Positions 2,412 to 61,603 of a DNA stretch of 64,000 nucleotides are shown one piece after another; positions within the stretch are counted from its first letter, which is position 1, and every line of letters begins with the position of its first letter. The stretch is from Escherichia coli O127:H6 str. E2348/69. Its GTDB lineage: Bacteria > Pseudomonadota > Gammaproteobacteria > Enterobacterales > Enterobacteriaceae. The notes under the pieces were generated by a model. It had not been told where the DNA came from and did no database searches. It worked only from the letters and a program-made list of their open reading frames with translations. Both the position numbers and the translations under genes were made by a program. The stretch is from NCBI RefSeq assembly GCF_000026545.1, contig NC_011601.1; one strand, 5' to 3'.

Positions 2412-3716
2412 TTGACTACGCCATTGAAAAAAATTGTGATTGTCGGCGGCGGTGCTGGTGGGCTGGAAATGGCAACACAGCTGGGGCATAAGCTGGGACG
2501 CAAGAAAAAAGCCAAAATTACGCTGGTCGATCGTAACCACAGCCACCTGTGGAAACCGCTGCTGCACGAAGTGGCGACTGGCTCGCTTGATGAAGGCGTC
2601 GATGCGTTGAGCTATCTGGCCCATGCGCGCAATCATGGTTTCCAGTTCCAGCTGGGTTCCGTAATTGATATTGATCGTGAAGCGAAAACAATCACTATTG
2701 CAGAACTGCGCGACGAGAAAGGTGAACTGCTGGTTCCGGAACGTAAAATCGCCTATGACACCCTGGTAATGGCGCTGGGTAGCACCTCTAACGATTTCAA
2801 TACACCAGGTGTCAAAGAGAACTGCATTTTCCTCGATAACCCGCACCAGGCGCGTCGCTTCCACCAGGAGATGCTGAATCTGTTCCTGAAATACTCCGCC
2901 AACCTGGGCGCGAATGGCAAAGTAAACATTGCGATTGTCGGCGGCGGCGCGACGGGTGTAGAACTCTCCGCTGAATTGCACAACGCGGTCAAGCAACTGC
3001 ACAGTTACGGTTATAAAGGTCTGACCAACGAAGCCCTGAACGTAACGCTGGTAGAAGCGGGCGAACGTATTTTGCCTGCATTGCCGCCACGTATCTCTGC
3101 TGCGGCCCATAGTGAGTTAACGAAACTTGGCGTTCGCGTGCTGACGCAAACCATGGTCACCAGTGCTGATGAAGGCGGCCTGCACACTAAAGATGGCGAA
3201 TATATTGAGGCTGATCTGATGGTGTGGGCAGCCGGGATCAAAGCGCCAGACTTCCTGAAAGATATCGGTGGTCTTGAAACCAACCGTATCAACCAGCTGG
3301 TGGTGGAACCGACGCTGCAAACCACTCGCGATCCAGACATATACGCTATTGGCGACTGCGCGTCATGCCCGCGTCCGGAAGGGGGCTTTGTTCCGCCGCG
3401 CGCTCAGGCCGCACATCAGATGGCAACCTGCGCAATGAACAACATTCTGGCGCAGATGAACGGTAAGCAGCTGAAAAATTATCAGTATAAAGATCACGGT
3501 TCGCTGGTATCGCTGTCGAACTTTTCCACAGTCGGTAGCCTGATGGGTAACCTGACGCGCGGCTCAATGATGATTGAAGGACGAATTGCGCGCTTTGTAT
3601 ACATCTCGCTGTACCGAATGCACCAGATTGCGCTGCATGGTTACTTTAAAACCGGATTAATGATGCTGGTGGGGAGTATTAACCGCGTTATCCGTCCACG
3701 TTTGAAGTTGCATTAA
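2412..3716 (+). CDS. ndh: NADH dehydrogenase II (NDH-2)
   Basis: TTG start giving (M)[26 protein letters not shown]...; FAD/NAD GxGxxG motifs; matches Ndh as recalled. Confidence 0.93.
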
Positions 3717-19983: not shown

Positions 19984-20128
19984 ATAAGGCGGGACACTTT
20001 CAGGATTTTGAATTTATTCAATTTTTTCCTTTCTCCAAAATCTCTCCAAAACGTTTCCCCAAAACTAGGCCACGCATTTTACAACACTTTTTTCCTGAGA
20101 TGGTGACGGATATTCCATATGGTGTTTA

Positions 20129-30140: not shown

Positions 30141-30710
30141 TTGAGAGACAACCATACTCAAATCTTCCACATTGCAGGAGATTTGAGTATGAATACGTCA
30201 CCGAGGAACAAAGACAGTATCATAGGCCCAAAAAGACCACTTCAGATATCTCATATCTGGGGGCTCCAAATCCGGCTTGAACTGGAAGGTAAAACGCGTG
30301 ATTTAGCTCGGTTTCAAGCAGAGCTACGGTGCTGCAACTGAAAAACTGGCAGTCCTATCCAATTTGAGATAACCAAAGGGACAAGAGAAGCTGTTTCTGC
30401 ATTGATAAAGCTTGGCAATTTACGCAGTAAAGACTACTTGTTCCGATCTCGGGTCGGTACTAACCAACACATATCAATCCTGCAATATAACCGAATCTTT
30501 CATAGGAGGGAGAAAAGCTTGGTCTCGAAGATTCGCTTTACAGCACACATTCCATGAGAAGAACAAAACCTTGCCTTGTCTGCAAGAAAACTAAGAATCT
30601 CCGGGTGATCCAACTTCCGTTGGGCCATAAGAAAACGGAAAGCACAGTTCGTTATCTGGGTATAGAAGTTGATGATGCATTAGAGATCTCTGAATCGATC
30701 GAAGTCTAAA
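30141..30710 (+). pseudogene. Degraded tyrosine recombinase/integrase
   Basis: Three short frames with recombinase hallmarks: GPKRPLQISHIWGLQIRLELEGKTRDLA (N-terminal) and HSMRRTKPCLV...LPLGHKKTESTVRYLGIEVDDALEISE (box II His/Arg and catalytic Tyr region); interrupted by stops/frameshifts. Confidence 0.6.
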
Positions 30711-31121: not shown

Positions 31122-32495
31122 ATGAAAAGACTATATTATACCCATCATGATAGTCGAACCTTAAAACTTGCTATAGAAGGTGATGTTTCTGATAATGCGA
31201 ATATTTTTACAGTAATTGTAGGTAAAAATGGCGTTGGAAAAAGCAGATTGTTATCTCAGATTGCTAAAGACTGTATTCAAGATATTCATTTCTTGAAAAC
31301 TTTTAATCCATTATTTGACAGAGAAATAACACCAAAGTTAATTGCCGTATCTACCAGCCCATTCGATAAATTCCCTCCAGGGCGTAGGTCATTAAATCAC
31401 CAAAGGAAAGAAAATAATTATCGCTATGTGGGTATGCGTGGAGAAGGCCCCTTCGGCGTATCAAATGCCGTATCCCTTTTATCTTCAGCAGCGAGAGGTT
31501 GGCTAGAGAAACTTGCTTATTCAGAAAATCCTGCAAATTTACTCGATGTTTTTCATTCTATTGATTTTGAGCCCCATATAGAGTTTGTATTTAAACCAAC
31601 TTACAACGGACCGGACACTCCTGACTATAACTTCATTGGTGTATATTCAGATGAGATATTAACGGAAGTTAAGGAGTTATATTTAAAATACAATATAAAA
31701 ATTGACAGGAAGAATATTGAGAGTCTCTTAAAGTTAAACTCCGAATCACGTCATGATATTTACGAAGCACTGGTTGAAATTAATCGATTTGAACCTGAAC
31801 GTAGGGCTGTAACCTTGTCAGTCGATTTTACCAATGGTGAAACATTGGTTGGCTCGACTTATGCGAATAATTATTTTTCTAGATCAATTCTTAAACTTAT
31901 GAACGCTGGCTTCATGAGATTGATGGATATGCGACTCATAAAAAAAAGCTATGGTCCCATGTCACTTAAACGTGCGAGCTCGGGAGAACAATGTTTATTA
32001 GTGATGTTGCTTGGAATTGCAGGGCATATAACTGATGGTTCTATAATACTAATTGATGAACCGGAAATAAGCTTGCATCCTCGATGGCAGGAAGAGTTTA
32101 TCATTATGTTAACAAAAGCATTTTTAACTTACTCAGGTTGTCAATTCATAATTGCAACTCATTCACCACAAATAATATCCAATTTGCCGAATAAAGGTTG
32201 TTATATAACATCTTTGTCGAAAAGTTATCTTTATAAAGCAAAATACTTTAGCAACCGGTCTGCAGACTATCAACTTGCGGAACTATTTGATGCCCCTGGC
32301 ATTATGAATGAATACATTGCCAGATTAGCTTTCAATTTACTTTCAAAAGTTAAGACTGCTAAGTTAGTAACAGATGATAATTGGCGTGAATTAAAACAAC
32401 TCCAGCTTCTCCTTGAAAACGTTAATAGTAATGACCCTATTAATGAACTCGTAAATTCCGTATCTCAGGTGTGTGAAATTTATGCCAAAAATTAA
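31122..32495 (+). CDS. ABC/AAA_21-type ATPase, Septu PtuA-like
   Basis: Walker A VIVGKNGVGKSRLL; Walker B + D-loop IILIDEPEISLHP; H-loop IIATHSPQII; 457 aa; overlaps downstream HNH gene. Confidence 0.75.
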   Translation: MKRLYYTHHDSRTLKLAIEGDVSDNANIFTVIVGKNGVGKSRLLSQIAKDCIQDIHFLKTFNPLFDREITPKLIAVSTSPFDKFPPGRRSLNHQRKENNYRYVGMRGEGPFGVSNAVSLLSSAARGWLEKLAYSENPANLLDVFHSIDFEPHIEFVFKPTYNGPDTPDYNFIGVYSDEILTEVKELYLKYNIKIDRKNIESLLKLNSESRHDIYEALVEINRFEPERRAVTLSVDFTNGETLVGSTYANNYFSRSILKLMNAGFMRLMDMRLIKKSYGPMSLKRASSGEQCLLVMLLGIAGHITDGSIILIDEPEISLHPRWQEEFIIMLTKAFLTYSGCQFIIATHSPQIISNLPNKGCYITSLSKSYLYKAKYFSNRSADYQLAELFDAPGIMNEYIARLAFNLLSKVKTAKLVTDDNWRELKQLQLLLENVNSNDPINELVNSVSQVCEIYAKN

Positions 32496-33117
32496 AAATC
32501 CAATTAGATTCAGCGCAGAGTCATTAGATATTATTGAGAAAAAATTGTCTTCTCCAGATTTTAAGCATACCAACTGGGGAGATGATGATTTGCAAGTTCT
32601 CCGTGCAGAAATTAGAAATCATTACAGAGAAGAACAAAAGCTAGAATGTGTATATTGTCATGAGCCTATTGGGGTAAGAGCTGCACAAGCTGCTCCTATA
32701 GAGCATATTGTGCCAAAATCTCAATATCTATGTTTTATTTTTGAACCTAAGAATCTATGTGTAGTATGTCCTGACTGCAATGAATTCAAAGGTAAAAATG
32801 AAGTGTTATTTGAACCCGTAATAAATGGGGGGCGGCGCAAAAACTATCCAACTGCATCTGCATCATTTCGCATCGTTCATCCACATATAGATGATTATGA
32901 GATGCATATTATAAAAGCAAATCGTGTTTATGTGGACAAAACACCTAAAGGGCACTATACCATTGGAATATGTAAACTAAATAGATTTTTTCATTATTTT
33001 GGGATGTGTGATGAATTTGTTAATGATGCAAAAATTGCTGAGGCAAATGAAAATTTTTTCAAAAAAGGTAGTATTACTACTAATGAATTATTGGATGATG
33101 ACATTCATTTGATTTAA
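32473..33117 (+). CDS. HNH endonuclease, Septu PtuB-like
   Basis: HNH/zinc motif CVYCHEP...IEHIVPKS...CVVCPDCNEFKGKN; 214 aa; start overlaps ATPase gene end by 23 nt. Confidence 0.75.
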   Translation: MKFMPKIKNPIRFSAESLDIIEKKLSSPDFKHTNWGDDDLQVLRAEIRNHYREEQKLECVYCHEPIGVRAAQAAPIEHIVPKSQYLCFIFEPKNLCVVCPDCNEFKGKNEVLFEPVINGGRRKNYPTASASFRIVHPHIDDYEMHIIKANRVYVDKTPKGHYTIGICKLNRFFHYFGMCDEFVNDAKIAEANENFFKKGSITTNELLDDDIHLI

Positions 33118-33371: not shown

Positions 33372-34460
33372 TCATGCTAGACACATGTAGGTTAGCCTCT
33401 TACGTGCCGGAAGGCAAGGAGATGTATGGGTCCACCACATATTGCAATTTTTATTCTCTTTTAAAATATATTCCACGGGCGTCATTAGTGCGAGCGCCTT
33501 GTGGGGTCTTTTGCTGTTATACAGCACCAGATATTCCGCCAGCTTCTGGTTAAATAGCGCCAGATCTTCAAAGAGTAAAATCTCATTAAATTCAATAAAC
33601 TGCTCTCTTAACGTCCGGTTAAAACGTTCACAGATAGCGTTCATTTTTGGCGTGTAGGGATAGGTCCAGAGGTGTTTGATAGCGGCTTCCTGCAGCGTTT
33701 TGTCGAAGTTTCCCAGGAACTCTTTTCCGTTATCTGTGATTATCTGGCTGATACCGACCGGGAACAACCGGGCTGCGCGGCTGAAGAAGTGATTGACGAT
33801 ATCACTGTTGAGTGACGGCACAGCCAGCGCCAGCGCGTAATTGCTGCATTCGTCGATCATGGTGATGACATAGCGACGCAGTTCGCCCATTCTGAGCTCA
33901 ATGGCGTCCATCCCAATGAGCTCACCTGTCTTTACCGGGCGGTAGTGCTTTGGCCTGCGGGGTTTGGCAGACCGCTTTTTGACAAGCAGTGCCTTCCCCC
34001 GCGATCCCAGACGCACAGGTATCATCCGCATTTTATCATGTGCGGCAGCGATCATTCTGCCGATGGTGGAAACACTCGGACAGGCCAGATAGCGCTGTTC
34101 GCACCAGGGCTTCAGGCGAACAAAAATCTGCTCTTTACCGAGGTTCGGCAGCTCTGTCCTGAGGCGTCGAATCTCTTTCAGCACATCGGGATGCCAGTGT
34201 TTTTTTCGTCGCACCAGAGGTGCCTTACTGTGCGGGATTAGCCCCTCAGGTCCTTCCTTGTTCAGTAACTGACGCCACCAGTAAAGCGTGCGGCAGGACA
34301 CGCCAAAGGCTTCAGAAGCTGCAGAAATACCGTGTTTATCCCAGAAGTGCAGAGCCTTCATTCTCATTGTTGCTATATCAGCCATCACTGAAAGCCTCAA
34401 CGCATAATCGGCCGTTTGGTAGTACTTAGGATAGCCAACCATCAGATGCTGCATTTGCAT
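33372..34460 (-). CDS. IS481-family DDE transposase (integrase-core/rve domain)
   Basis: 362 aa; N-terminal HTH (...CRTLYWWRQ...), DDE core, C-terminal ...YNSKRPHKALALMTPVEY typical of rve transposases. Confidence 0.7.
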   Translation of the reverse strand: MQMQHLMVGYPKYYQTADYALRLSVMADIATMRMKALHFWDKHGISAASEAFGVSCRTLYWWRQLLNKEGPEGLIPHSKAPLVRRKKHWHPDVLKEIRRLRTELPNLGKEQIFVRLKPWCEQRYLACPSVSTIGRMIAAAHDKMRMIPVRLGSRGKALLVKKRSAKPRRPKHYRPVKTGELIGMDAIELRMGELRRYVITMIDECSNYALALAVPSLNSDIVNHFFSRAARLFPVGISQIITDNGKEFLGNFDKTLQEAAIKHLWTYPYTPKMNAICERFNRTLREQFIEFNEILLFEDLALFNQKLAEYLVLYNSKRPHKALALMTPVEYILKENKNCNMWWTHTSPCLPARKRLTYMCLA

Positions 34461-43085: not shown

Positions 43086-44663
43086 CCCCCAGCTAGGCTC
43101 TGTCTCTTATACACAAATCCCCACCCGGGGATTTGTGATGTCTGTCAGTCTGCTTTAGGGGGACTCTTTCCATCCGGTAGTTTCCTTCCTCCCCGGCAGC
43201 GATTTTTTGAACTTTTTCCTCACCCGTTGATCTTCTCTTATATTTCATTTTCTTCGGGTCTGTTATGGTACTTTCTGATTGTTATTCATGGGCTAACGAG
43301 CAGTTTGGACATGCCCGTCTCGGTGATCCGCGTCGTACACGACGCCTTGTGTCACTGGCCTCTTCTCTCGCTCAGCATGCAGGTCTTTCTATTGTGAAAT
43401 CATCCCAGTCCACTGCTCAGGTTGAAGGTGCGTACCGCCTGATACGTAACCCGTCTGTGTCCCCGCAAGCCATTGCCGAAGCCGGATTTACCGCCACTGT
43501 AAGGGCATGTGAGGCTCATCCGCTGCTCCTCGCGCTGGAAGACACCACCACCATTAACTTCAGTCACAGTACGGCATCTGATGACCTGGGGAATACCACC
43601 ACTAACCCGAAGACGCGCGGGCTGCTGGCTCACTCTGTCCTGATGTACGCCCCCGACAGCGCCCTGCCAGTCGGTCTTATCGAACAGCAGCGCTGGAGTC
43701 GTGCCACGGACACCTACGGTGTTAAGCACCAGCGAAAAGAACGTCCCTATGAAGAAAAAGAAAGTTACCGCTGGCAGCAGGCTTCGGAGCGCATGGCCGA
43801 ACGGCTGGGGGAGATACAGAAACGGGTAATCACTGTCTGTGACCGGGAAGCGGATATCTGGCATTACCTGCATTATAAAGTCAGCCACGGGCAGCGCTTC
43901 GTGGTGCGTGCAGCACAGAATCGCCGGCTGGAAGAAGCACCCGGCAAGCTCTTCGAACTGCCGGAAGTCCTGGCAACCGCGGGAAGCCACACGCTGAATG
44001 TGATGCAAAAAGGCGGGCGGGCAGCCCGCCAGGCCCGGATGTTCATCAGTTACAGCGAAGTCAGCATAAAAAATCCCGACAACAGCGGCCAGGCGCTCCC
44101 GCTCACGTATGTCTGTTGCCGGGAGCAGGCAGAGGACGGCGCCTGCTGGCATCTGCTGACGTCAGAAAAAGTGGCGAGTGCCGCCGATGCGCGACGTATC
44201 GTCAGCCATTACGAGCGACGCTGGCTGATAGAGGAATACCACAAGGCGTGGAAAAGTGGTGGTACATGTGTGGAATCGCTGCGAATGCAGACCCGGGATA
44301 ACCTCGAGCGCATGGTGGTTATCAAGGCGTTTATCGCGGTGCGGGTGCTGGGCCTGCGGCAGGGCGGTATCAGTGAAGAAACACAAAATGACAGCTGTGA
44401 GAAAATACTGACGCCGACAGAGTGGAAACTGCTGTGGGTTAAGCTGGAAGGAAAACCGCTTCCGTCACAGATGCCGACACTGAAATGGGCCTGTCTGAAA
44501 CTGGCGAAACTGGGGCGATGGCATGACAGCAAACGCACCGGTCGCCCCGGTTGGGTAGTCATGTGGGATGGCTGGTTCAGACTTCAGGATATGGTTGAGG
44601 GTTACCTGGTGATGAAGTCTCTTGATCAGGAGATCTGATCAAGAGACAGAGCTAGGCTGGGGG
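43086..44663 (+). mobile_element. IS4-family (IS50-like) insertion sequence
   Basis: Imperfect terminal inverted repeats CCCCCAGCTAGGCTCTGTCTCTT (43086) and revcomp of aagagacagagctaggctggggg (44639-44663), containing the CTGTCTCTT motif of IS50 ends; Tn5-Tnp-like transposase inside. Confidence 0.8.
43265..44638 (+). CDS. IS50-like DDE transposase
   Basis: 457 aa, colinear with Tn5 transposase as recalled (LGDPRRTRRLV..., ...YERRWLIEEYHKAWKSG..., ...NLERMV...). Confidence 0.85.
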   Translation: MVLSDCYSWANEQFGHARLGDPRRTRRLVSLASSLAQHAGLSIVKSSQSTAQVEGAYRLIRNPSVSPQAIAEAGFTATVRACEAHPLLLALEDTTTINFSHSTASDDLGNTTTNPKTRGLLAHSVLMYAPDSALPVGLIEQQRWSRATDTYGVKHQRKERPYEEKESYRWQQASERMAERLGEIQKRVITVCDREADIWHYLHYKVSHGQRFVVRAAQNRRLEEAPGKLFELPEVLATAGSHTLNVMQKGGRAARQARMFISYSEVSIKNPDNSGQALPLTYVCCREQAEDGACWHLLTSEKVASAADARRIVSHYERRWLIEEYHKAWKSGGTCVESLRMQTRDNLERMVVIKAFIAVRVLGLRQGGISEETQNDSCEKILTPTEWKLLWVKLEGKPLPSQMPTLKWACLKLAKLGRWHDSKRTGRPGWVVMWDGWFRLQDMVEGYLVMKSLDQEI

Positions 44664-57983: not shown

Positions 57984-59303
57984 GTGAATATGGCAGTAAA
58001 GATTTCAGGTGTACTGAAAGACGGCACAGGAAAACCGGTACAGAACTGCACAATCCAGCTGAAAGCAAAACGTAACAGTACCACGGTGGTGGTGAACACG
58101 GTGGCCTCAGAAAATCCGGATGAAGCCGGGCGTTACAGCATGGATGTTGAGTATGGCCAGTACAGCGTCACCCTGCTGGTTGAAGGTTTTCCTCCTTCGC
58201 ATGCCGGGACCATCACCGTGTATGAAGATTCTCAGCCGGGTACGCTGAATGATTTTCTCGGTGCCATGTCGGAGGATGACGTCCGTCCGGAGGCACTGCG
58301 TCGCTTTGAACAAATGGTGGAAGAGGCAGCGCGTCACGCCGGGGAGGCGAAGAAGAATGCCGGAGAGGCGGAGACGTCAGCGAGGAATGCCGGCATATCA
58401 GCCAGTCAGGCAGAAGAGAGCGCGGCAAATGCTGACACTTCAGCAGGGGAGGCATCGGAGTCAGCCCGGCAGGCGGCAGAAAGTGCAGCCGCTGCAAAGA
58501 AGTCAGAGGAAGCGTCCTCGTCCTCGGCCTCTGAGGCCGCTCAAAAAGCCAGTGAGTCATTACAAAGTGCAGCAGATGCTGAGTTGTCAAAAAAGACGGC
58601 AGAAAGTGCAGCCGGTAATGCAGCCAGGGATGCAACGACCGCAGCAGAAAAAGCCCGGGAGTCAGCAGAAAGCGCACAGTCAGCGGAACAAAGCAGGATA
58701 GCGGCGGAAGACGCCGTAAACCGAATCCCCACCGTGGTGGGACCTCCCGGGCCAAAGGGAGAACCGGGGCCCGCGGGTCCTCAGGGGCCGAAGGGAGATA
58801 AAGGAGAGCGTGGCGACACCGGTCCTGTCGGGGCAACCGGTGAGCGGGGACCGGCAGGTGATGCTGGTCCGGCAGGCCCGCAGGGGCCGAAAGGCGACAG
58901 GGGAGAGCGGGGAGAGACCGGTCTGACGGGAAATGCAGGTCCACAGGGTCCAAAGGGAGATACCGGTGCGGCAGGTCCGGCAGGCCCACAGGGACCGAAA
59001 GGAGAAACAGGTGCGGCTGGCCCGGTGGGGGCAACCGGACCTCAGGGACCAAAGGGCGACCCGGGGGAGACACAAATCCGTTTTCGTCTGGGGCCGGCGA
59101 GCATTATTGAGACAAACAGCAATGGCTGGTTCCCGGGTACAGATGGTGCGCTCATCACCGGACTGACCTTTCTTGACCCCAAAGATGCCACACAGGTTCA
59201 GGGGCTGTTTCAGCATTTGCAGGTCAGGTTTGGTGACGGGCCGTGGCAGGATGTTAAGGGGCTGGATGAAGTGGGCAGTGATACAGGCAGAACAGGAGAA
59301 TGA
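57984..59303 (+). CDS. stf: Side tail fibre protein (Stf-like) with collagen-like Gly-X-Y repeats
   Basis: N-terminus [26 protein letters not shown]... matches lambda Stf; central [26 protein letters not shown]... collagen-like tract. Confidence 0.88.
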
Positions 59304-59304
59304 C

Positions 59305-59574
59305 ATGAACGTACTAAAAAAACTTATGCAGCGTCTGTGCGGGTACGGAAAGCATGATGACCGTGAACACGGGGAGTTACTTACAGCACAACTGCGTCTG
59401 GGGCCGGCAGACATCCTGGAGTCAGATGAGAATGGTATTATTCCGGAGCAGGCCAGGGTAATCACGCAGGTGGTGATACTGGATACAGATAAAAAGCAGA
59501 TACAGTGTGTGGTAAGACCGCTGCAAATCCTGCGTGCTGACGGGACGTGGGAAAATATTGGCGGGATGAAGTAA
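59305..59574 (+). CDS. Hypothetical tail-fibre-associated protein
   Basis: 89-aa ORF starting 2 nt after the stf stop; central segment resembles the Stf C-terminal segment (LRLGPADILESDENG vs [15 protein letters not shown]). Confidence 0.5.
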   Translation: MNVLKKLMQRLCGYGKHDDREHGELLTAQLRLGPADILESDENGIIPEQARVITQVVILDTDKKQIQCVVRPLQILRADGTWENIGGMK

Positions 59575-59590
59575 CCCGACGGGTTCACAA

Positions 59591-59616
59591 AAACCGGAGT
59601 CCGGCTCCGGTTTTTG
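59591..59616 (+). terminator. Rho-independent terminator
   Basis: ccggagtccggctccgg stem-loop followed by T5. Confidence 0.7.
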
Positions 59617-59617
59617 T

Positions 59618-59952
59618 TGTCATGTCCGGTGGATGTTTGTTATGACTCCCTATATTTCCAGACATCTGTTATCACTTAACCCATTACAAGCCCGCTGCCG
59701 CAGATATTCCCGTGGCGAGCGATAACCCAGCGCACTATGCGGATGCCATTCGTTATAATGCTCGAACGCCTCTGCAAGGTTCTTTGCTGCCGTTAACCCG
59801 TCTGGTTTAGGCATGATACTGATGTAGTCACGCTTTATCGTTTTCACGAAGCTCTCTGCTATGCCGTTACTCTCCGGACTCCGCACCGCCGTGTTCTTCG
59901 GTTCAAGCCCCAACATCCGGGCAAACTGCCGTGTTTCATTAGCCCGGTAGCA
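59618..59952 (-). mobile_element. IS2 remnant (3' end of the insD/orfB transposase gene and right end only)
   Basis: Minus-strand translation ...[43 protein letters not shown]...[29 protein letters not shown] equals the IS2 InsD C-terminus as recalled; no upstream part of the IS present. Confidence 0.75.
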
Positions 59953-60507
59953 CGGACCATAACAATTTATAATCTGCTGGCCGGAACTAATGAATTTATT
60001 GGTGAAGGTGACGCATATATTCCGCCTCATACAGGTCTGCCAGCAAACAGTACCGATATTGCACCACCAGATATTCCTGCTGGCTTTGTGGCTGTTTTCA
60101 ACAGTGATGAGGCATCGTGGCATCTCGTTGAAGACCATCGGGGTAAAACGGTTTATGACGTAGCGTCAGGGGACGAGTTATTTATTTCTGAACTCGGTCC
60201 GTTACCGGAAAATGTTACCTGGTTATCGCCGGAAGGGGAGTTTCAGAAGTGGAACGGCACAGCCTGGGTGAAAGATGCAGAAGCAGAAAAACTGTTCCGG
60301 ATCCGGGAGGCGGAAGAAACAAAAAACAACCTGATGCAGGTAGCCAGTGAGCATATTGCGCCACTTCAGGATGCGGTAGATCTGGAAATCGCAACGGAGG
60401 AAGAAAACTCGTTGCTGGAAGCCTGGAAGAAGTATCGGGTGTTGCTGAACCGTGTTGATACATCAACTGCACCTGATATTGAGTGGCCGACTTCACCTGC
60501 AGAGTAA
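59953..60507 (+). pseudogene. tfa: Tail fibre assembly protein (tfa) lacking its first codons and start
   Basis: [87 protein letters not shown]... colinear with lambda Tfa from about residue 10; homology ends abruptly at the IS2 remnant. Confidence 0.8.
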
Positions 60508-60739
60508 TCAACGGCGCAGGGATGATATTTTGTGCTTGAAGTGCCTCCCCGACCATTCAGATAGTCGGGGAGGGGGTATTGGGATTATACGCAATCAGTT
60601 TTAGTAAAAGACCGAAGCTCTCGAAAAATCTTTCTCCAAAACCAGAATGCAATTGATTGATTTTGATAGGATCTATAACGCCGTTACCTTAAACGGCAAA
60701 ACCACTCAAAAACAAACCTAATGTATTGAATATAAAGGA

Positions 60740-61603
60740 TTAATCATCTAATTCGCTCACCTTCTTATTCAGCAGACGAGAAGCGCGCCAGTAAACCAGC
60801 AACATCAGGCCCATTACGATAGTCAGCGTAATGCTGGTGGCTGCACCAAACGGCCAGTCACGAATATTGAGGAACTGTACCTTGATGACGTTACCGATCA
60901 GCAGGTTTTTCGCACCGCCCATCAGGTCGGACACATAGAACAGGCCCATCGCTGGCAGCATCACCAGCAGACATCCGGCAATAATTCCCGGCATCGTTAG
61001 TGGGATAATGATGCGGATAAAGGTCTGCAACTTGCTGGCACCGAGATCGCGCGCCGCCTCAAGCAACGGCTTATCCAGTTTTTCGATACTGGAGTACAGC
61101 GGCATCACCATAAACGGCAGCAGAATGTAAACCAGACCGATAATCACCGCACTAGGCGTGAACATGATGCGAATTGGTGTATCGATAACGCCCAGCCAGA
61201 GCAAAAACTCGTTGAGATAGCCTTTGGTGCTGAGGAAAATTTTCAGCCCGTAAATACGAATCAATGAGTTGGTCCAGAACGGAACAATCAGCAGAAACAG
61301 CAGCAGCGGACGCACCTTGTGTGGCAGCTTCGCCAGAAACCAGGCAAAAGGATAGCCCAGCACCAGGCAGGCGAGGGTGGCGATCAGCGCCATATTCAGC
61401 GAGTGCAATAGCACTTCAAAATAGAGCGGATCGAGCAGACGCGTGTAGTTATCCAGCGTAAAGACCATTTTGACGAAACTGGCGTCGTCGCGGGTCAAAA
61501 AGCTGGTGCCAATGATCATCAGGTTGGGCAGAAAGACAAACAACACAAGCCAACCGACAATAGTGACAATCACTACATTCTGGAACTTACTTGTGTTCTT
61601 CAT
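60740..61603 (-). CDS. potB: Spermidine/putrescine ABC transporter permease PotB (3' end remodelled by prophage junction)
   Basis: 287-aa ORF ...[17 protein letters not shown]; the terminal codons derive from phage-side sequence while the ancestral-type ending NKKVELE* is found next to potC at attL; N-terminal start uncertain. Confidence 0.9.
60768..60781. repeat. attR core: 14-bp direct repeat CACCTTCTTATTCA (prophage right junction)
   Basis: Identical to 19970-19983; lies inside the 3' end of potB. Confidence 0.75.

Follow-up and report, generated by a model that had tools for sequence, protein, structure and literature searches.

We analysed a 64-kb stretch of DNA (hereafter the window), in which the RefSeq annotation places a lambdoid prophage of about 40 kb between potC and potB. 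The integrase and excisionase genes adjoin potC at about window position 20,000, and the tail-fibre end adjoins potB (60740..61603, minus strand; RefSeq), the chromosomal gene that flanks the prophage on this side. Over positions 59300-60760, the sequence matched the E. coli E2348/69 chromosome (NZ_CP059840.2, reverse strand) at 100% identity. This whole stretch was covered in 1 of 5,426 complete E. coli genomes, namely that of E2348/69 only, and the junction between IS2 and the tail fibre assembly gene tfa was likewise present in 1 of the 5,426.

The prophage is clearly defective. At about 52789-53237, the N-terminal fragment of an S49 head protease gene overlaps a C-terminal fragment of gpK (NlpC/P60), and this overlap marks a large internal deletion. 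Because the protease fragment is fused to the gpK fragment, most of the head and tail genes are gone. Several other features were observed in the prophage. Three further insertion sequences occur at 43265-45234 and 33372-34460: IS200C and ISEc13, which lie between the holin gene and a SASA-family esterase gene, and an IS481-family element beside hokD. An AAA ATPase and HNH endonuclease gene pair (31122-33117, plus strand) matches the Septu defence system in PADLOC (PtuA, 1.9e-165; PtuB, 1.1e-83) and adjoins a frameshifted second integrase gene (~30189-30709) and a DUF5677 gene, an arrangement that suggests a small island nested in the prophage.

The tail-fibre module lies to the left of the IS2/tfa site. 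It contains the gene for a 439-aa collagen-like fibre protein (57984-59303, plus strand), followed by the gene for an 89-aa protein (orf89; 59305..59574, plus strand; RefSeq WP_001101709.1) with a Phage_fiber_C domain (Pfam PF06820, 2.7e-34), which is the last intact gene of the module. Within 57984-59574, the 439-aa protein was seen to have collagen-like repeats and Phage_fiber_C at its own end, and the 89-aa gene constitutes a second, free-standing copy of this domain. The inverted repeat and the RNA fold revealed a terminator-like hairpin (AAAAACCGGAG-TCCGG-CTCCGGTTTTTGTTG; 59587..59617, plus strand) followed by a T-run, which closes the fibre genes, precedes both the IS2 scar and the tfa remnant, and is conserved in relatives. 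Folding of 59575-59630 gave -26.7 kcal/mol (z = -3.8), and 0 of 200 shuffled sequences were equally stable. A consensus terminator scan missed this hairpin after the 89-aa gene; it was seen by folding.

The IS2 fragment and its two junctions

The IS2 fragment (59648..59952, minus strand) corresponds to nt 1018-1322 of the 1331-nt element and was delimited by blastn, an ungapped match, Pfam and a RefSeq pseudogene. Blastn of a full IS2 from another genome against window positions 59648-59960 gave 306/313 identities (E = 4e-157), and the ungapped match to IS2 nt 1018-1322 was identical at 300 of 305 positions. The fragment encodes InsD residues 202-301 plus the stop codon (59650-59952), with zero amino-acid differences from the full copy and a match of the InsD tail to Pfam rve_3 (2.4e-19). 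The preliminary description, made from the sequence alone, had recognised about the last 100 codons of IS2 orfB (insD) on the minus strand; the number is exactly 100. RefSeq lists the fragment as pseudogene H4J01_RS14375 ("integrase core domain, missing N-terminus"). No further IS2 sequence was found in the 64-kb window, in which closer alignment revealed no full-length copy, no left inverted repeat (IRL) and only this single 305-bp piece; as had been stated, the rest of IS2 is missing together with the first codons of tfa (codons 1-9). The E2348/69 chromosome contains a second match to the 3' part of IS2.

Compared with IS2, a member of the IS3 family with orfA and orfB (insC and insD), the fragment shows 98% nucleotide identity over 305 bp and keeps the identical C-terminal 100 residues of InsD and the inner 32 bp of the right inverted repeat (IRR; 59648-59679). 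However, it represents only 23% of the element and lacks the IRL, orfA, the first 201 orfB codons, the site of the programmed -1 frameshift between orfA and orfB, and the terminal 9 bp of the IRR (TGGATTTGC). The DDE triad is incomplete, with both catalytic Asp residues lost, as the motifs that contain them (near residues 132 and 198) precede the break. Having neither end tips, IRL, orfA nor either catalytic Asp, the piece is unable to transpose. There is no target duplication at the fragment, and both of its flanks are deletion junctions, whereas the full IS2 copies in two comparison loci (L005 and L018) do show 5-bp duplications.

The right junction was placed by a three-way comparison of the window, IS2 and intact tfa. 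This alignment to a full IS2 copy and to intact tfa genes, which had been proposed as a check, defined the junction within AGCA (59949..59952), a sequence common to IS2 (GGTAGCA followed by TGAACCAT) and tfa (ACAAGCA followed by CGGACCAT). At this point, IS2 reads ...CCCGGTAGCA and continues with TGAACCATTATCC, intact tfa reads ...GAACAAGCA and continues with CGGACCATAAAAATT, and the window reads ...CCCGGTAGCA and continues with CGGACCATAACAATT. Around the junction, 10 of 12 bases are alike in IS2 and tfa. On the IS2 side, the breakpoint is internal to orfB (nt 1017/1018) and within the 4-bp microhomology. On the other side, tfa homology begins at 59949, codon 9 (GCA) falls within the microhomology, and the codons can be assigned to tfa without ambiguity from codon 10 (CGG, Arg) on; the earlier placement of the meeting point at about codon 10 (R-T-I-T-I-Y-N-L-L) thus holds.

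The left junction lies in CCCT (59648..59651), which is common to the native sequence (GACTCCCT followed by GTGT) and to IS2 (TTGCCCCT followed by ATAT), as seen when the window was compared with sister loci L009-L012. This CCCT is the end point of a 65-bp deletion. The canonical right end of IS2 on the displayed strand is TGGATTTGCCCCTATATTTCCAGAC, and the window at the left junction reads ...GTTATGACTCCCTATATTTCCAGAC. Homology to IS2-free prophages, O157 Sakai Sp17 among several, runs through ...TGGATGTTTGTTATGACTCCCT up to 59651, which makes 59575..59651 native prophage intergenic DNA. Because the native homology reaches 59651, the join falls in CCCT and the last 9 bp of IS2 are missing; for the same reason, TGGAT at 59631-59635 is native DNA that mimics the IS2 tip and not the tip itself. 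The preliminary description had the right end of the IS present and the feature starting at 59618. Neither point survived: the terminal 9 bp are lost, and IS2-derived sequence begins at 59648-59652. Its end point of 60100 was arbitrary, as the tfa remnant runs to 60507.

A match of at least 4 bp has a probability of about 0.016 at a random join, and such a match is found at both junctions (AGCA on the right, CCCT on the left). A short sequence identical in both partners, as in microhomology-mediated (illegitimate) deletion, is thus present, and the position of the right breakpoint within 4 bp of microhomology points to illegitimate recombination or slippage. Inversion was rejected as the origin of the right junction on logic, because the joined segments are in direct order and therefore only deletion or intermolecular exchange could have joined them.

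An IS2 insertion followed by an adjacent deletion had been proposed for this site. Part of this account stands, in that IS2 was once present and was mostly lost together with the tfa start. A transposase-mediated adjacent deletion that followed an IS2 insertion in or beside tfa and left the right end of IS2 intact is nevertheless very improbable. IS2 sequence and truncated tfa do abut, and the right-end tip TGGATTTGC is present in sister strains (L009-L013), as such an event would have it. However, an adjacent deletion made by an IS keeps the element whole; here the IS is not whole, the junction is inside orfB rather than at an IS end, the right end in the window is without its 9 bp, and both junctions lie in 4-bp microhomologies. 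The state of the right end also differs from that account, since it was eroded by the separate 65-bp deletion.

We propose instead that the tail-fibre genes were once followed by an IS2 in minus orientation, and that nt 1018 of this IS2 would have been joined to tfa codon 9/10 within AGCA, either by deletion or by illegitimate recombination between phages. This event would have removed about 1 kb of IS2, the tfa translation start and everything between, and would be common to the whole lineage. A full minus-strand IS2 ancestor with an intact downstream region was not found among the complete genomes searched with a palindrome-bearing query, where only E2348/69 and L018 matched.

The second of these two routes, illegitimate recombination of two phage genomes, is a variant of this step and not exclusive of it. 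An Sp17/O157-type phage with a short collagen-like fibre and IS2 would have recombined with a resident potB-site phage with a long Stf and Tfa, giving a hybrid right arm. The window was 97% identical to the O157-type module of L005 up to 59651 (J, lom, the 439-aa fibre gene and the 89-aa gene). Against the potB-site phage L002, it was 98% identical from 59949 on and 92% identical over lom and the start of stf, with no match between, and in potB-site relatives a 1131-aa Stf gene is followed by tfa directly. With an O157-type match to the left of the scar and a potB-site phage match to its right, the right arm is a mosaic. The same mosaic could, however, have arisen in two steps, with the fibre module first exchanged by homologous recombination and a cis deletion later running from IS2 into tfa, and we regard the inter-phage route as possible but unlikely.

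In the best reading, the IS2/tfa site is a scar without function that marks the right end of this defective lambdoid prophage and is bounded by a microhomology junction to either side (probability about 0.8). A scar of this type is ordinary prophage decay and an already known kind of feature, of little biological consequence in a prophage whose head and tail genes are mostly gone as well.

Coding state of the tfa remnant

The remnant comprises codons 10-194 plus the stop codon of a lambda-type tail fibre assembly gene (59953..60507, plus strand; Pfam PF02413). The Caudo_TAP domain is intact (PF02413, 5e-45, profile positions 1-131 of 131), and 542 of 555 nt are identical to the intact tfa at the same potB chromosomal site in L002, with 5 amino-acid differences. 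Compared with lambda-type tfa genes (tfaR and tfaQ of K-12 prophages, and the tfa of L002), codons 10-194 of the remnant are collinear and 98% identical to intact tfa, and, as in the potB-site prophages, the remnant is the last prophage gene before potB. It differs from them in the loss of codons 1-9, the ATG, the Shine-Dalgarno sequence and the normally coupled upstream stf. The first 8-9 tfa codons with the ATG and Shine-Dalgarno sequence are absent, and the remnant has neither a start of its own with a ribosome-binding site nor the full length of about 194 aa. An intact tfa lies directly after its cognate stf; here, the remnant is preceded by an unrelated short fibre module, the terminator and the IS2 scar. 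The cognate long fibre gene was absent from this position, where in relatives at the potB site the 1131-aa stf immediately precedes tfa. Truncated tfa pseudogenes are also found in the cryptic prophages of E. coli K-12, likewise as remnants at the edge of a decayed prophage. The E2348/69 locus differs from these in that the junction partner is an IS2 fragment and the breakpoints are lineage-specific.

RefSeq annotates a coding sequence at this site (WP_072131109.1, "tail fiber assembly protein", 193 aa; 59926..60507, plus strand), which is a chimeric frame that starts at a CTG inside IS2. Its first 8 codons are antisense insD, and its codon 9 (GCA) lies in the junction microhomology. Other annotations of the locus give a 139-aa product from GTG 60088. 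A mechanical 162-aa open reading frame on the minus strand (59650..60138), which begins on the antisense strand of tfa and extends into the end of InsD, appears to be an incidental product of the fusion.

The tfa frame is open from 59797, after an upstream stop at 59794-59796, and runs for 237 codons without a frameshift or stop. From 59797, no in-frame ATG, GTG or TTG occurs until GTG 60088, which bears out the earlier statement that tfa was left without its own start codon. All in-frame ATG, GTG, TTG, CTG, ATT and ATA codons within 59797-60088 were scored against the anti-Shine-Dalgarno sequence. The nine candidate starts gave duplex energies of -1.5 to -4.5 kcal/mol (CTG 59926, -2.5 kcal/mol), and none had a Shine-Dalgarno match, whereas the real starts of J, lom, stf, orf89 and intact tfa gave -5.6 to -7.4 kcal/mol. 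An alternative in-frame start with a ribosome-binding site, which would have spoken against the earlier statement, was thus not found among these candidates, the RefSeq CTG included. No promoter-like site was found in 59200-60800.

Judging from these missing signals, the tfa remnant is almost certainly not expressed. It is probably a pseudogene, and the RefSeq protein an annotation artefact, as there is no Shine-Dalgarno match, no promoter-like site and no cognate fibre gene, a terminator lies upstream, and the prophage is unable to build particles. A remnant still at work, translated from CTG 59926 or GTG 60088 and serving as a chaperone for the fibres of other prophages, would fit a frame without internal stop or frameshift, an intact Caudo_TAP domain, the additional listing of Caudo_TAP_N for the product, the replacement of only 9 of 194 residues and the RefSeq coding sequence. 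Because the frame is otherwise undamaged, a small chance of residual expression is left. Such a role is nonetheless improbable: CTG is a rare start, the translation and transcription signals are missing downstream of a terminator, and the prophage has lost most of its head and tail genes. WP_072131109.1 ought to be flagged as a pseudogene in RefSeq.

Left-side alleles in sister strains

An exact look-up found the 193-aa chimeric product on 15 contigs and the 139-aa alternative call on 13. The identical IS2/tfa junction was present at all 16 loci read (L009-L017, L019-L022 and L024-L026) of these 28 contigs with the product. The sister loci are draft-genome and metagenome contigs, and the gene adjoins potB where the flank is long enough. 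Apart from the left-side differences described here, L009-L012, L014 and L015 were 100% identical to the window over 59575-60760, and L013 was 99.6% identical. For L019, L020 and L026, the check was confined to the exact junction and the allele sequences. One metagenome contig (L021, 1-378) was set aside: it holds the junction but carries unrelated DNA upstream of window position 59756, inside the IS2 fragment, and is probably a chimeric assembly at a repeat.

Three left-side alleles were read. In the first (L009-L012), the minus-strand IS2 fragment abuts, at its right end, a solo IS2 right end on the plus strand (...GACTCCCTGTGTTTGGAATGAATATTTAATAACAGATGTCTGGAAATATAGGGGCAAATCCAG meeting CTGGATTTGCCCCTATATTTCCAGACATCTGTTATCACTTAA...), and the two ends form a perfect palindrome; in L012 (187-256), it consists of 35 + 35 nt that are 100% complementary with a 0-nt spacer, 70 bp in all. 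In the second (L013, L019 and L020), the centre has lost 17 bp, which leaves the IS2 tip intact and arms of only 19 nt, separated in L013 by a 15-nt gap. In the third (the window, L014, L015 and L026), a 65-bp loss runs from the native CCCT to the CCCT within the end of the minus-strand IS2, and no palindrome is left in the window. The palindrome belongs to the strains of assemblies GCA_025635745.1, GCA_026486405.1, GCA_019500085.1 and GCA_033384875.1, and the 17-bp loss to that of GCA_001286505.1. None of the 5,426 complete genomes searched contained the 70-bp palindrome. The 17-bp allele is not a perfect palindrome and still holds parts of both arms, which argues against an assembler artefact.

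Since neither the 65-bp nor the 17-bp state can regenerate the palindrome, we take the palindrome as ancestral and as resolved on two or more occasions. A 35-bp solo IS2 right end would have faced the right end of the minus-strand IS2 head to head, creating the perfect 70-bp palindrome. The E2348/69 sublineage would then have undergone a deletion of 65 bp between the two CCCT repeats that took one arm and 9 bp of the other, and in another sublineage 17 bp would have been lost at the palindrome centre. The sequences and allele states were read directly; from them we infer the order of these events and a mechanism of replication slippage or hairpin processing. As the 17-bp deletion has no microhomology, the mechanism of resolution was not uniform.

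Palindrome-stimulated deletion in E. coli involves hairpin formation, processing by SbcCD and slipped mispairing between short direct repeats. The allelic series resembles it in that the ancestral allele is a perfect 70-bp palindrome and the derived alleles have lost the centre of symmetry, one of them between 4-bp direct repeats. It differs in that the series is natural, occurs in wild strains rather than in an engineered construct, and includes a 17-bp deletion outside any microhomology. Palindromes are described as known sites of deletion and instability in E. coli (PMC3315005).

IS2 insertions in the spacer after the fibre genes

The spacer of about 45 bp after the fibre-gene terminator has been hit repeatedly: different strains show no fewer than three IS2 insertions that arose independently. 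Sakai Sp17 (L004, ~3245-3282) and L006 each carry a solo 32-bp IS2 right end there. In L005 (3260-4590), a full plus-strand IS2 lies inside the solo end with an ACAGG target duplication, and in L018 (4066-5396; strain SCPM-O-B-9504), a full, divergent minus-strand IS2 lies about 40 bp upstream with a CTCCC duplication. L018 was considered as the full minus-strand ancestor and rejected, being an independent insertion of a divergent IS2 in another context.

The L018 insertion bears on a further account of the left junction, in which a minus-strand IS2 inserted directly at ACTCCC^TGTG and then lost 12 bp of the IS tip, with no palindrome involved. L018 holds a full minus-strand IS2 at that exact point, and a 12-bp deletion there would recreate the window sequence. 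Yet its IS2 is divergent (95% identical), it sits in a different prophage context and it has no tfa junction, whereas the palindrome loci L009-L012 combine the exact IS2/tfa junction with 100% identity to the window. A direct insertion is accordingly highly unlikely, and we retain the decay of an ancestral palindrome as the origin of the left junction.

IS3-family elements reportedly insert next to sequences that resemble their own ends, a behaviour said to have been described for IS911 as "targeted insertion" by Rousseau et al. in 2008. Insertion of this type would explain the head-to-head ends 2 bp apart. The IS2 of L005 landed inside the solo right end, and that of the L009-L012 ancestor would have landed 2 bp from its tip; the L018 insertion, in contrast, lies about 40 bp away with no solo end present. 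The Sp17/O157-type spacer may therefore be an IS2 hot spot or a case of insertion targeted to an inverted repeat (IR). More specifically, the solo right end could have made the spacer a recurrent landing pad for IS2, with formation of an IRR-GC-IRR palindrome of which enteropathogenic E. coli (EPEC) keep the intact, the 17-bp-lost and the 65-bp-lost states; we hold this tentatively, at somewhat less than even odds.

The IS2/tfa junction is a lineage marker for E2348/69-like EPEC, and the three left-side alleles subdivide this lineage. A single result is of mild interest: the natural series of alleles at a palindrome composed of two IS2 ends, which provides a clean natural example of the removal of a perfect palindrome built from two IS ends. 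If the landing-pad account is true, the spacer would document, in nature rather than in the laboratory, both IR-targeted IS2 insertion and the decay of a palindrome.
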